Of a DNA stretch of 64,000 nucleotides, positions 357-5,705 are shown one piece after another. The position numbers were made by a program, and so were the translations under genes. The stretch lies in contig CAWKBC010000034.1 of assembly GCA_963847705.1 (NCBI GenBank), positions 128,001-192,000 of the forward strand, in the 5' to 3' direction. The stretch's first letter is position 1, and each line of letters opens with the position of its first letter. This DNA is from an uncultured Pseudomonadota bacterium. Lineage in GTDB: Bacteria; Myxococcota_A; Polyangia; Fen-1088. The notes below the pieces were generated by a model, which did not search any database, was not told where the DNA came from, and saw nothing but the letters and a program-made list of their open reading frames with translations.

Positions 357-1511
357 CTAGAAGATGATCCCGATCTGCGCCAGCGCGCCGGGCATGTAGG
401 CGTCGATCGCCCCGCTGTCGTTCTCGGTCTTGAGCAGGTAGGTCGGCAGATCGAGCTCGACCTGGCCGAAGAAGTGGATGGAGCTGGCGCGCAGGAACTC
501 GTAGCCGACCAGGAAGTCGACGTTGAGACCGCCGCCGACCAGGAGGTCGCGGTCGGTGGTGCTGGTCCGCTCGGCGACCGGGCGGATGGCGTCGAAGAAG
601 GCCAGCTCGAAGGCGGCGCCGCCGCCGAAGTAGAGCGAGTTGATCCCGGCCGCGTCGAGGTAGCGCAGGAAGTGCAGCCCCGCCGAGAGGCTGAAGGAGT
701 AATCGACGTGGCCGCCCAGATCGTTGTCGTGAATCCCCGTCTGCTCGGTCCCGAGGTCGACGCGGCCAAAGGCGTCGAAGCCCCAGGAGTGCAGCTTGCG
801 CCGGTAGCCGGCCTGCACGGTGACGGGCGTCAGCACCCGCAGCTGGTCGGTGGCCGGCAGCGACTGCCCCTGCGCGGTCGGCAGCTCCGCCAGCCGCACC
901 TCCGTCCCCATGCCGAAGATGAAGTGCCCCGTCCCCTCGACGGTGCGCAGATCGCGCTCGCTGTCGGAGCGCAGCACGTTCTCGCGCGTGATCGTCTGGC
1001 CGACCGGGCGGCCACGAAGCAGCGCGAACGCCATCCGCTGCGCCAGCTCCACGAACTCGTCGAGCTCGGCCCGGTCGATCTTCTCCTCCCGCTCGCCGTA
1101 GTGCCCGAACACCGTCCAGCCGCTCTCCAGCTGATAGAGCTCGACGACCAGGCGCTGCTGGCAGGCGTCATTGACGGCCAGGAAGCCCTTCTCGTGCGTC
1201 ACCTCGTACTCCAGCATCCGTTTGAGGTAGAGCGTCGGATCGATCTCGTGCGTCTCCGCGGCGTGATGCGGCGCGGGCGCGTCGCCCGAGGACGTCGGCG
1301 CAGGCGGCGGTGGATAAGGAAGCGGCGGAGGGGGCATGAGCATCGGTGCCCCCTCGACGGTCGACACGACCGGAGGGGCGACGTGCAGCGCCGGCGGCGC
1401 CCGGTACCAGGACTTCTGTTGAACGCTCACGCAGACCCGGATGGTGGCGGCGGCGGTGTTCGACCAGATCACGATCGCGAGCGAGGTGAGTCCAAGCCAG
1501 CCCGGCTTCAT
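357..1511 (-). CDS. Secreted protein with Pro-rich linker and probable C-terminal outer-membrane beta-barrel
   Basis: AAGGAG RBS before ATG at 1511; signal peptide (MKPGWLG...TAAA); alternating hydrophobic/Gly-aromatic strands; C-terminal ALAQIGIIF resembles a beta-signal. Confidence 0.7.
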   Translation of the reverse strand: MKPGWLGLTSLAIVIWSNTAAATIRVCVSVQQKSWYRAPPALHVAPPVVSTVEGAPMLMPPPPLPYPPPPAPTSSGDAPAPHHAAETHEIDPTLYLKRMLEYEVTHEKGFLAVNDACQQRLVVELYQLESGWTVFGHYGEREEKIDRAELDEFVELAQRMAFALLRGRPVGQTITRENVLRSDSERDLRTVEGTGHFIFGMGTEVRLAELPTAQGQSLPATDQLRVLTPVTVQAGYRRKLHSWGFDAFGRVDLGTEQTGIHDNDLGGHVDYSFSLSAGLHFLRYLDAAGINSLYFGGGAAFELAFFDAIRPVAERTSTTDRDLLVGGGLNVDFLVGYEFLRASSIHFFGQVELDLPTYLLKTENDSGAIDAYMPGALAQIGIIF

Positions 1512-1574
1512 GTGAGCTCCTTGCGTGTACGAGGTCACGCCGACCGTGCGGCCGGCGATTTGCCGTCGACGTTT

Positions 1575-1590: not shown

Positions 1591-2018
1591 CACGCAGATC
1601 CCGCGGTTCGCCGCGACGGCGACCAAACCCGACTGTCAGAAAGCGAACGAAGCGCGTCGAGGGTTCACACACCCGTGCCCACCCGCCGAAGCCGTTGCGA
1701 CCGGCGCACGAAGAACGACAGTTCCTGGGAGATCCCGCGGCAGTGCGCGGCGCCGCAGGAATATTGCCCTCCGCCCACGTTCCCTGGGACGGACCGGCCG
1801 CTCCGGAGCAGCGCCTCGGGGAACCCCATTTTCCCTGGCCCGAACGCACCCGGTGACGAGCGCCAACAGAAAATGCAACGGGCTGCCGATCCTCATTCGC
1901 CGTGGTCCCCTCACCAGTCCGCAACCTTCCGCCCAGCAACTCGACGCTCACCTGGAGGGCGGTTTTCAGCCGCGCCCGCGTTCCCCTGGGATCACCGCTG
2001 GTTTACAGTGCCGCCGCC

Positions 2019-2744
2019 ATGCTGCCATCCCGCGCCAGTGTGGGCCTCCTCGTTCTCCTCTTGTCGTGTCTGGCGCTGGGAGGGCCGGCCCGGGCCGACG
2101 ACGTCGAACAGGCGCGCGCCTACGTCAACAAGGCGACCGGCGCCTACGCGCTCAGTCACTACGCGGTGGCGGCGGAGAACTTCGAGAAGGCCTTCGAGCT
2201 CAAGCCCGACCCCGCCCTCCTCTACAACGCCGCCCAGGCCTACCGGCTGGCGGGCAACAAGGAGCGGGCGCTGGAGCTTTATGAGAGCTACGTGCGCGTC
2301 TACACCGGCAAGAAGGACATGCGGCCCGACATCGAGGGGCACATCAGGCAGCTGAAGGAAGCCATCGAGCGCGACAGGGCGGCGGCAACCTCGCCGCCCA
2401 TCACGACGATGCCGATGGGCGGTACGCCGGGCGAGGGGCGAGAGCCCCCGCCCACCAGCCCGCCGCCGGTGACGCCCATCGCCCCGGCCGCGTCGGCCTC
2501 GACGTCGACGCCCGCGCCAGCTGCGATCGCGCCTCCTCCCGCCTCCGCGGCGCCGGCCTCGTCGCCGGTGGTGCTCACCCAGAGCGCCGGACCGCCGGAG
2601 ACCAGCGATTCGGTGACCAAGAAGACCTGGTTCTGGGTGGCCGTCGGCGGCGGCGTCGCGGCCGCCGTGATCGTGGGGCTGCTGATCGGGCTGAGCGGAA
2701 CTGACCCCGCCAGCGCCAGCATCGGAAAGGTGAACGGAAATTGA
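2019..2744 (+). CDS. Exported TPR-repeat protein with Pro-rich linker and C-terminal TM segment
   Basis: Signal peptide ending ARA-DD; TPR motif (AAENFEKAFELKPDPALLYNAAQAY); KKTWFWVAVGGG hydrophobic tail typical of myxobacterial TPR proteins. Its stop overlaps the next start (TTGA). Confidence 0.8.
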   Translation: MLPSRASVGLLVLLLSCLALGGPARADDVEQARAYVNKATGAYALSHYAVAAENFEKAFELKPDPALLYNAAQAYRLAGNKERALELYESYVRVYTGKKDMRPDIEGHIRQLKEAIERDRAAATSPPITTMPMGGTPGEGREPPPTSPPPVTPIAPAASASTSTPAPAAIAPPPASAAPASSPVVLTQSAGPPETSDSVTKKTWFWVAVGGGVAAAVIVGLLIGLSGTDPASASIGKVNGN

Positions 2745-5705
2745 AGCGTCTTCCCTGGTGGTTGTCGTCCGGACACGCTCTCGCGATCATGCTGCTCGCC
2801 GGGCTGGTGACAGCGGCGGGCTGTCGAAGCACCAGCTCGTGCAACGCGGGAACCGTCCTCGTCACGGTGACGTTCGACGCCACCACCAGCGCGGCGGATG
2901 ACGTTGACGTCGAGGTGAGCGTCGACGGCGGCGCGCCCAAGACCACCTCCCTGCCGCACAACCCGGGCGACACCAGAGGTTCGATCGAGGTCGACTTCCC
3001 GAGCGGGACCGGGTACCCGGAAGGTAAGCGCCTGGACGTCACGGTCGTGGCGCGGGCCGCGGGCAGCGTGCTCGGAACCGCCACGGCCAGCGTCGCGATG
3101 TTGCCGAGCGGCTGTGGCACGCTCGCGCTCAGCTTCGGCGTGACGGGGCCGGACGGCGGCACCGGGGCGGGCGGCAAGGGCGGCAAGGGCGGCCAAGCGG
3201 GCGGTGGCGCCACGGGCGGCCGCGACGCCGGCACCTCGGACGCCAGCGGCGACGGCCCCCTCACCGGGTGCACCAGCGGCACCACCCGCTCCTGCGCGGC
3301 GGATGGCTATCTCGGCAACTGCGCCAGCGGCACCGAGACCTGCGCCGGCGGCCGGTGGAGCGCCTGCAGCGTCTCTCCGGCGGCCGCGGACAGCTGCGCC
3401 ACCAAGGGCGACGACGCCACCTGCAACGGCACGCCCAACGAAGGGTGCGCCTGCCTGGACGTCGACCCGGCGCGCTCCTGCAGCGCGGGCGGCGCGCTCG
3501 GGGCCTGCGCCGCGGGGATGCAGACCTGCTCGGGAGGGAAGTGGGGCGCTTGCAGCATCGCACCCGCGGCCCAGGACGACTGTACGGTCAAGGGCGACGA
3601 CTCCAACTGCAACGGCACGCCCAACGACGGCTGCCCCTGCGTCAACGGGGACACACAGCCCTGCGGCCCGGCCGCGGTCGGGATTCTGCAAGCCAGGGAC
3701 GGCGACCTGCGCGAGCGGCGTCTGGGGCGCCTGCGTGGGGGCGGTCAACAAGGCGGCCCGCGACTGCACGTCGACGGCCGACAACGACTGCGACGGGTTG
3801 CCGGACAACACGGTCGACGTGGTGTGCAAGTGCGGCAGCGGCTCCACGCAGGCCTGCAGCGCCCACCCGGGCAACGACGGCTACGGCCCCTGCACGGCCG
3901 GAAAGCAGAGCTGCGTCATCGCCGCCGACAAGACCTCCTCGACCTGGGGCACCTGCTCCGGGGCGGTGGGTCCCGCAGCCGCCGACACCTGCGTCAAGGG
4001 CGACGACAGCAACTGCAACGGCACCCCCAACGAAGGGTGTGCCTGTGTCAGCACGGACGCGCCGCGCTCGTGCGCCGCGGCCGGCGCGCTCGGAAACTGC
4101 GCCGCGGGGACCCAGACCTGCTCCACCGCCGGCCAGTGGGGCGCCTGCAGCGTCCAGCCCGCCTCCGCAGACAGCTGCGCGGTCAAGGGGGACGACGCCA
4201 CCTGCAACGGGAAGGCGAACGAAGGCTGCCCCTGCGTCAGCGGCGACACGGAGAGCTGCGGCCCGGCTGCGGTCGGGATCTGCAAGCCCGGTGTGGCGAC
4301 CTGCACGAACGGCGTCTGGGGCGCCTGCGTGGGGGCGGTCAACAAGGGGACGCGTGACTGTACCTCGTCGGCCGACAACGACTGCGATGGGGTGCCGGAC
4401 AACACGATCGATCTCGTCTGCACCTGCACCTCCGGCACGACCCAGCCCTGCAGCGCCCACCCGGGCAAGGACGGCAACGGCCCGTGCAAGGCCGGCTCGC
4501 AGACCTGCGTGGTGGCGGCCGACAAGACCTCTTCGGCCTGGGGGACCTGCAGCGGCTCGGTGGGGCCGGCGGCCTCCGACACCTGCGTTCAGGGCAACGA
4601 CAACAATTGCAGCGGGACCGCCAATGACGGCTGCCTCTGCGTCAACAGCGTGACCACCCGCAAGTGCGGCTATTGCAACGACGGCTCGCAGACCTGCGTC
4701 GACGGGACCGTGGGAAGCTACACGACCTGCGTGGGGGCGACCGGACAGGCCTTCACCGCCCTGCCCCTGGTCAACGGTTGGACCGGCGGACCGTACTCCA
4801 CGGCCATCCCCGCGGCGGCGCTGGACTGCTCGGGCGTCGTGCAGCTCAAGGGGGGGATGTCGACCACCGGCACGAACCTGTCGGCGTTCACCCTCCCCGC
4901 CGGCCTGGCGCCTCCGGCGAGTCTCTGGATTCCGGCCGACGGCTACAGCTCGGCGAAGGTGCGCCTCTACGTCGCCAGCACCGGCGCGGTCAGCGTCCAG
5001 GCGCTCAATGCGACGACCGACGCCACGCAGTTCACGTCGCTCGAGGGGGTTTCGTTCCCGGTGTCAGCCAACGGTTACACGCCGCTGACGCTGCAGAACG
5101 GATGGACGGCGTACAGCGGGGCCCGCGCTCCGGCGGTGGCCAACGTCGGGGGGATCATCCGCTTCCAGGGCGCGGTCACGACCACCGGCACGAGCTCGAC
5201 GATCTTCACGCTGCCGGCCTCGATGGCGCCTCCGACCATCACCTACGTGACGGCCGATCTCTACCTCGCGGCGAAGGGGCGGCTCGTCATCTCGCCCACC
5301 GGCGCGGTGAGCGTCCAGGCCCAGAACACCTTCTCCGACGCGGCGAGCTTCACCTCGCTCGAGGGGGTCTGGTTCGCGCTGTCGTCGAGCGGCTACACGG
5401 CGCTCACACTCCAGAATGGGTGGGCGACGTACAGCACCACGCGCGGCCCCGCGGTCTCGGTCAGCAACGGGATCGTCCGTTTCCAGGGCGCGATCTCGAC
5501 CAGCGGCACCAACCTCCTGCCCTTCGTCCTGCCGGGTGGATTCCTGCCCGCGGCGAGCGTCTACACGCCCCTCGACCTCTACGCGGCCAGCAAGGGGCGC
5601 TTCTACATTCAGTCGAACGGGACGGTCGACGTCGATCCGGAGGGGGGCACCACCACGAACGCCACCGGCTTCACCTCGCTCGAGGGCGTCTCCTTCGCCC
5701 AGTAG
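2741..5705 (+). CDS. Large Cys-rich repeat surface lipoprotein with three C-terminal phage tail/RBP-head-like repeats; +1 frameshift near 3684
   Basis: Lipobox AAGC; Gly-rich linker; repeated DxxCNG/DNDCDG Cys motifs. The N-part is in ORF 2741..4357 and the C-part in ORF 3204..5705. Repeat copy 1 reads gggattctgcaag where copy 2 reads gggatctgcaag, i.e. one extra T. Confidence 0.75.
3422..4640 (+). repeat. Internal tandem duplication (~595 bp unit, 2 copies) encoding the Cys-rich stalk
   Basis: tgcggcccggc..cggtcggg at 3662 and 4257; tgcaacggcac.cccaacgaagggtg at 3422 and 4014; protein units GPAAVGICKPG..CVGAVNK..RDCTS.ADNDCDG.PDNT repeated. Confidence 0.85.

Follow-up and report, generated by a model that had tools for sequence, protein, structure and literature searches.

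The receptor-binding proteins (RBPs) of Listeria phage PSA and of the lactococcal phages are homotrimers (PMC7291167). Their single-copy chains end in a beta-barrel head, borne on an elongated carrier with a neck or stem and mounted on the virion. In p2 and TP901-1, glycerol is bound at the head-head interfaces by an aromatic residue together with His, Asp and Arg (PMC6115969). The tail needle gp58 of phage Pa223 (9NXP) is trimeric and three-fold symmetric and forms a homotrimeric plug of the podophage tail, for which a receptor role is merely suggested (bioRxiv 2025.06.11.659172). On the bacterial side, the tail fibres of extracellular contractile injection systems (eCIS; Nachmias-type catalogue, PMC12923769) have been modelled as trimers, and the MAT fibres of Bdellovibrio are homotrimers with phage-like adhesive tips on the bacterial surface, kept as a paralog repertoire in the predator, with one member binding prey glycans (PMC10769870). 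The window analysed here is the whole stretch of 64,000 nucleotides from an uncultured bacterium of the Polyangia (GTDB Myxococcota_A, Fen-1088; assembly GCA_963847705.1, contig CAWKBC010000034.1, positions 128,001 to 192,000 of the forward strand). It holds the gene for a predicted lipoprotein ending in three tandem repeats (the tip). The tip probably consists of three fused domains of the phage-head fold, packed as one trivalent head; carried on a lipid-anchored stalk, that head would likely bind a glycan of a cell wall or matrix. The repeats are as follows.

4752..5075, + strand: repeat 1, 108 aa, starts with F; predicted phage receptor-binding-head fold (PHROG, AlphaFold, VIA-align)
5076..5393, + strand: repeat 2, 106 aa, starts with Y; predicted phage receptor-binding-head fold (PHROG, AlphaFold, repeat alignment)
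5394..5705, + strand: repeat 3, 103 aa, starts with Y and ends at the stop codon 5703-5705; predicted phage receptor-binding-head fold (PHROG, AlphaFold, VIA-align)

The tip, 318 aa long, is the translation of 4749-5702. Its repeats are pairwise 49-51% identical with 34 invariant columns and score 107-126 bits each against a repeat profile built from homologs; no other locus in the genome does. The three copies and their shared motif, placed at 4752, 5076 and 5394 by a first-pass annotation made from the DNA letters alone, are thereby confirmed. Two minor tail families, PHROG 3285 and 11445, match every repeat (E 5e-10 to 2e-6), and homology to phage minor tail proteins was shown at this level. 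Searches of Pfam and NCBIfam gave no credible match on the repeats, and searching PDB sequences with either the tip or alignment A1 turned up no match better than E 0.1. The accession PF27455, precomputed on some homologs, could already name the repeat domain, and the local Pfam copy gave no PF27455 match for homolog P0127; Pfam matches to Pgp3, BON and DUF6107 on single homologs are unverified. No relative of the tip was found on plasmids or in an exact-pattern search of IMG/VR, and no RNA holder was listed. The ESM Atlas yielded unnamed clusters only, one of which resembles the tip in its features and bears a mostly eukaryotic label (Chlorophyta; 3 of its members have a phylum), possibly through contamination.

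Given an alignment of 128 sequences, AlphaFold (five models) predicted the tip with a pLDDT score (predicted local distance difference test) of 97.9 and a predicted template modelling (pTM) score of 0.94, compared with a pLDDT of 33 from the single sequence. Each repeat is predicted to adopt the beta-barrel head fold of phage RBPs. Among the 48,161 chains compared with VIA-align, the best match was PSA gp15 (6r5w_A; Z 12.8, root-mean-square deviation (rmsd) 2.0, 98 residues aligned), the second was the Pa223 needle (9nxp; Z 11.6, rmsd 2.2), and next came bIL170 (2fsd, 9.9), TP901-1 (2F0C/4IOS; 9.6, 9.3), p2 (2WZP, 9.2) and Zamilon Zav_19 (8.3). Adenovirus and reovirus heads followed at Z 5-6 and unrelated cellular rows at 5.1 or less, the top ranks holding viral attachment heads only. 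Among the matches listed for these representatives, none was a solved chain that extended beyond a single repeat at high Z. With Foldseek, 6r5w was the only row of probability 1.00 among the 44 PDB matches listed; in the viral library many tail proteins matched one repeat, and a minor tail protein of phage Truong matched the whole tip. The likeness to phage receptor-binding and minor tail heads that the first-pass annotation had proposed from the motif is thus supported by both profile and predicted fold, and the known cellular lectin or other non-phage fold that it had named as the contrary outcome did not emerge. The propeller and lectin rows in the Foldseek output (WDR91, BamB and the BP39L lectin) had template modelling (TM) scores of 0.11-0.19 and rmsd of at least 15, and on these values we rejected a cellular fold of the propeller or lectin type.

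The tip shares with the PSA and lactococcal heads a probable trimeric arrangement and a C-terminal position on an elongated carrier, but differs in that three diverged copies lie in one cellular lipoprotein chain without a neck helix, at identities of 13-22%. Its placement of three heads about a three-fold axis is indicated indirectly by the pTM of 0.94, which predicts a rigid placement of the three domains, by cyclic covariation, and by copy numbers in threes. Covariation was measured over 492 distinct triplets (effective number of sequences 371), with residues in repeat-profile numbering and the repeats denoted R1 to R3. The strongest directional pairs, chosen on R1>R2 and R2>R3, were Arg71>Phe95, Arg71>Asp63, Ile30>Phe3, Lys69>Asp63, Thr56>Ser20 and Tyr59>Thr19. 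In R3>R1 the top 10 pairs had a mean z of 4.37, with 8 of 10 above z 2, against a mean of -0.18 and 0 of 10 above 2 in R1>R3. None of 5000 permutations reached the observed level of R3>R1 recurrence, and the signal was gone when R3 was shuffled among proteins (-0.14 versus 2.16). When pairs taken from three-copy proteins only were applied to 105 six-copy proteins, the steps 1>2, 2>3, 4>5 and 5>6 scored 2.1-2.7 and the step 3>4 scored 0.5. Couplings that run R1>R2>R3>R1 and, in six-copy proteins, are interrupted between R3 and R4 agree with one closed ring of three, and with two rings in the six-copy case. These sequence data support the single-chain pseudo-trimer that the first-pass annotation had suggested, and the predicted packing, together with the R3>R1 covariation, speaks against the independent beads without a trimer interface that it had set as the opposite case.

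Copy number was counted in best-ranked subsets. The best 120 of 253 long homologs comprise 100 six-copy and 20 three-copy proteins, the window's own protein included, and the best 120 of 720 near-length homologs contain 111 three-copy proteins; the 9 that remain begin within a repeat or at its end. At 79 genome loci (from the best 80 of 114 confirmed stretches) with 83 genes, 76 genes have three copies, 5 six and 2 two; two of the three-copy genes are frameshifted and one is cut by a contig end, as one and one of the six-copy genes are. A single-repeat profile search over 1.84 billion representatives, in which more copies rank higher, gave a maximum of six copies among the best 150 of 2256. 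There, 128 proteins have a leader (97 with three copies, 24 with six, 6 with two, 1 with four), and the remaining 22 are truncated or leaderless; two of the six two-copy rows look damaged. No complete protein with five copies or with seven or more was seen in these lists. The free variation in copy number that would have told against a trimer did not occur in these ranked lists, where numbers were almost always three or six. The linker span inside the triplets of three-copy proteins is 23 residues in 102 of 107 and 103 of 115 cases, and at the R3/R4 junction of six-copy proteins it is 21-22 residues in 51 of 68. Repeats are more alike within (0.63) than between proteins (0.56), implying ongoing amplification or gene conversion. 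Beside these counts stand two loci with tandem genes of one three-repeat module each, four at L054:5361-9933 and two at L040:5863-8104, in metagenome-assembled genomes (MAGs) of Acidimicrobiales and Actinomycetota.

Relatives in phages and injection systems mostly carry a single head. Every phage match (best 60 of 64) spans one repeat, and Donnerlittchen gp170, Liandry gp63 and Hankly gp17 each have one copy. A class-wide search, with four candidates scored per genome, found matches in 17 of 401 genomes; the strong matches all have three or six copies, and eleven weak ones are single copies at or near the C-termini of fibre-like proteins. At L114 the neighbourhood contains genes for a sheath, three tubes, a CIS tube, a spike, gp25 and baseplate J, and at L113 for a sheath and a spike, so the single-head proteins there are contractile-injection fibres. 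Thus the domain occurs as one copy where a fibre provides the trimer and as three copies where it has been fused. Myxobacterial contractile-injection fibres with one head copy at the tip were noted at L114:5582-7255 (-), L096 and L099-L105. Two proteins of less than 190 aa (L097:1435-1998 and L098:1513-2016, the latter on the - strand), each made up of a hydrophobic leader, a short segment like a fibre and a single head, are possibly secreted homotrimeric mini-adhesins. Where myxobacterial eCIS fibres are encoded in operons with sheath, tube and baseplate genes, they terminate in a single copy of the repeat domain, borne by a trimeric fibre that belongs to a secreted machine. The window gene, by contrast, has neither a baseplate-anchor N-terminus nor such an operon and does not class as an eCIS fibre. 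From the MAT fibres the window protein differs in that it would be a monomeric lipoprotein, rich in Cys, that bears a single-chain head, and its family occurs in many lineages not known as predators; neither half of its gene gave a Pfam fibre or S74 match at E 0.1, as a MAT-type shaft or chaperone might.

A close match in architecture is the Akonivirus minor tail protein (Truong A0A6M3SZL4; Akoni gp37, of the same species as Truong), which, like gp101 of L120, has three fused heads in one chain, with three profile hits in each of Akoni gp37 and L120 gp101. The predicted Truong structure superposes on the whole tip (TM 0.86, rmsd 2.8). It differs in being a virion protein of 18% identity with position-diverged repeats that lie outside the bacterial group in a quick tree. 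In that tree, whose root and donor are not fixed, 48 sampled bacterial repeats fall on one side of a branch (Shimodaira-Hasegawa-like approximate likelihood ratio test 92, not starred), apart from the phage triplet repeats, which pair by position. At L117:4597-6699 (Akoni gp37) and L120:3206-4666, both genes for Microbacterium phage tail proteins, the three fused heads are strongly diverged and likely form an asymmetric single-chain trimer on the virion. The Akonivirus protein is known from prediction, and no description of it was found in the literature covered. That some phages (Truong/Akoni, L120) already fuse three heads had been overlooked in the first-pass annotation. From the distribution of the fold, we infer a viral origin of the module.

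In the proposed mechanism, the Cys-rich stalk of a lipid-anchored protein would hold out one trivalent head, whose three repeats would pack around a pseudo-three-fold axis. Three ligand sites would lie in the clefts between repeats, lined by Asp63, Arg71, Phe95 and Tyr59 by analogy with p2 and TP901-1, and the head would bind a cell-wall or matrix glycan. Near-invariant Asp63 and Arg71 and two aromatic residues covary across repeats and are kept in the window's repeats, all three of which have Asp63, Arg71 and Phe95. Given these residues and the glycerol sites of p2 and TP901-1, a glycan site in each cleft seems likely, assuming equivalent residues. Fusion in one chain would free the trimer from a trimeric fibre scaffold, and the freed head could then serve as a portable module, for targeting or adhesion, on any secreted protein that is monomeric.

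The carriers fit such portability. Of 240 homologs, the first repeat is preceded by no more than 120 residues in 174; a trypsin domain is present in 26 and a Cys-rich stalk in 16. Other passengers are Kelch, NHL, FG-GAP and metallopeptidase domains. Many six-copy homologs end in a hydrophobic, basic tail, which we take to resemble a PEP-CTERM anchor. By record title the carriers are Actinomycetota, Acidobacteriota, Myxococcota, Alphaproteobacteria and Gammaproteobacteria, and cultured ones are Sorangium cellulosum So ceGT47, Catenulispora sp. GAS73 and Jatrophihabitans sp. GAS493. Judged from sequence, the module is mobile across lineages and architectures. Its presence in many Actinomycetota, Acidobacteriota and Proteobacteria, often as leader and module only, implies that prey recognition is not its general role, and the link to predation drawn in the first-pass annotation is not supported for the family.

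Upstream of the tip, the gene has the following parts and partner.

1902..2744, + strand: TPR protein whose C-terminal segment is hydrophobic; the stop codon overlaps the TTG start of the lipoprotein (weak Pfam TPR matches below curated cut-offs)
2741..2824, + strand: signal peptide and relaxed lipobox TAAG|C (Cys28, codon 2822-2824; Ala at -3), by sequence pattern
2825..3265, + strand: N-terminal anchor-side domain (~110 aa) and Gly-rich linker, by sequence (weak DUF7363 match below cut-off)
3266..4748, + strand: stalk rich in Cys, made of seven modules (arranged a-a-b-c-a-b-c) of 60-70 aa each and a short cap, by sequence
3684, + strand: extra base, +1 frameshift, absent from the contigs of runs X1 and X2; relatives intact

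By its pattern, a signal peptide with a lipobox Cys that is kept in relatives (AAGC or ASGC in 11 of 15 by pattern check), the protein would be a bacterial lipoprotein. The stalk is internally duplicated (58-69% matches at an offset of ~197 aa) and, with 67 Cys in intact relatives, is likely a disulfide-bonded spacer. Stalk matches occur in 23 of 89 family genomes, where the tips are Lcl_C, FGE-sulfatase-like, propeller-like and other domains, and the swapping of tips on one stalk, for which a survey had been proposed, was thus found. The N-terminal domain is a display platform that recurs in two paralogs in this genome, which have other domains at their ends. These paralogs (G000:C27:696933-698891 and G000:C14:204474-202267) have the same N-terminal domain and Gly linker, followed by either a different Cys-rich region or a C-terminus labelled metallophosphoesterase-like by eye. 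A 9-bp unit in the Gly linker was the sole find of Tandem Repeats Finder. The same TPR gene lies upstream in the three closest loci (L010, L011 and L017) and before the paralogous lipoprotein gene on C27, and the TPR protein and the lipoprotein are likely co-expressed partners.

In this assembly the lipobox frame (2741-4357) and the repeat frame (3204-5705) are two different frames, and the lipobox-anchored, duplicated Cys-rich stalk bearing the repeats that the first-pass annotation described stands only in part; lipobox and stalk are present, but the lipobox is out of frame with the tip, the +1 shift at 3684 between them having been missed. Intact relatives of 972-978 aa match both halves end to end, P0058 through residues 1-305 and then 306-978 at 90% and 84% identity, and neither half has a further stop or shift. 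In three genomes of the same genus, uninterrupted reading frames of 1024-1144 aa finish with three repeats. Two near relatives, whose contigs match the window at ~94-96% identity, lack the extra base. Runs X1 and X2 are of strains other than this one, so the base at 3684 may be either an assembly error or a strain-private mutation; the strain therefore either produces the lipoprotein or has lost it. Two database homologs of 656 aa, P0062 and P0091, begin just past the frameshift position, and contig ends, repeated errors and a real slippage site are all candidates.

Several observations weigh against a trivalent glycan-binding head at this locus. The frameshift interrupts its gene in this assembly, and the ranked lists under-sample one- and two-copy forms. 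Six complete two-copy proteins (P0331, P0339, P0346, P0357, L075 and L080) and one four-copy protein (P0334) exist. In six-copy proteins the ring closes only weakly when pairs from three-copy proteins alone are applied (0.7, near noise, for each of 3>1 and 6>4), and the score is 1.9 with pooled pairs. A Cys65-Cys94 pair present in ~85% of family repeats is absent from all three window repeats and occurs in close relatives in repeat 3 only. The head fold also serves as a tail-needle knob, where a receptor role is merely suggested (bioRxiv 2025.06.11.659172), and Asp63-Arg71 may be merely a structural salt bridge. That the repeats are independent beads on a string, their count of three a historical accident, could draw on the rare two- and four-copy forms and on the within-protein likeness of repeats, with its hint of amplification or gene conversion. 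It is nevertheless very improbable in view of the predicted rigid packing, the directional covariation in R3>R1 that is absent in R1>R3, and the gaps at five and at seven or more copies in the best-ranked lists. The complete two-copy proteins are most similar to three-copy ones, P0346 being P0213 at 100% less one 106-aa repeat, and they look like deletions. P0334, with a trypsin domain, four repeats and a short R3/R4 linker, looks like a six-copy protein minus two repeats. A true frameshift would instead make the locus a dead copy in this strain, with no current function though the family functions. The assembly contains the extra base and the 656-aa proteins P0062 and P0091 start just after the same point, yet single-base indels are a frequent kind of assembly error, the near relatives lack the base, and both halves are otherwise undamaged. 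A dead copy is therefore a minority prospect, though one to be taken seriously.

A pseudo-trimer may also be real and bind a protein or other non-glycan surface, or serve as a stable cap or scaffold, as adenovirus knobs and the Pa223 needle knob would suggest. The fold class does include the adenovirus and reovirus heads and that needle, the conserved covarying residues could be purely structural, and many members consist of leader and module only. This is unlikely, however, as the closest solved head and the four lactococcal heads come from phages treated as binders of cell-wall polysaccharide (PMC7291167), the Asp/Arg/aromatic set lies between repeats as in p2 and TP901-1, and a targeting role accords with the module's fusion to proteases and further extracellular domains. 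A narrower role, in which a predatory myxobacterium would use the protein as an adhesin devoted to recognising prey or kin, like the MAT fibres of Bdellovibrio (PMC10769870), is somewhat less likely still. Prey or kin recognition by myxobacterial members is possible by this precedent, and the close relative L011 (65%) is titled Polyangia, the stalk carries varied tips in the family, and trypsin fusions of the module occur in Sorangium and Kofleriaceae. Against a dedicated role stand the many carriers among Actinomycetota, Acidobacteriota and Proteobacteria MAGs, the presence of the module in only 5 of 24 same-genus genomes, and the single copy in this genome, without a paralog repertoire.

Binding of a cell-wall or matrix glycan by one fused trivalent head is the preferred reading, and a broader proposal built on it is finely balanced. 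The module may be an undescribed virus-derived lectin common to soil bacteria of at least four phyla, a one-chain RBP trimer inherited in threes and swapped onto stalks, proteases, propellers and surface anchors to aim at cell-wall glycans of other microbes, some phages having fused their heads separately. The head fold is already known; what is new would be the single-chain architecture of three or six heads in cellular secreted proteins, and its novelty is limited by the parallel triple-head fusion in phages. No description of a tandem or pseudo-trimeric RBP head was found in the literature covered, which included passages of PMC12309495 and few subscription papers. If correct, the proposal means that a viral homotrimeric adhesin was turned into a monomeric, freely fusable cellular module, a transition from oligomer to tandem repeat in which single-, three- and six-copy states are all extant. 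In dominant soil phyla, hundreds of secreted proteins that lack annotation would gain a named domain, one likely to target glycans by analogy with the phage heads. The module would also offer a natural single-chain scaffold with three separately variable predicted binding clefts for use in bacterial-glycan probes. The cultured Sorangium, Catenulispora and Jatrophihabitans carriers make the module directly testable.

The absence of phage genes nearby, remarked on in the first-pass annotation, agrees with the neighbourhood, where no phage structural family matched among 16 neighbouring open reading frames (ORFs) from 357 to 29523. The neighbours of the lipoprotein gene include TPR, ABA4-like, TetR-like and NUDIX genes. 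A 393-aa secreted-looking protein at window 357-1538 (-), which has no Pfam, NCBIfam or PHROG match, is divergent from the TPR-lipoprotein pair and 88% conserved at the same place in L010; noted together with it was a further ORF that runs off the window start.

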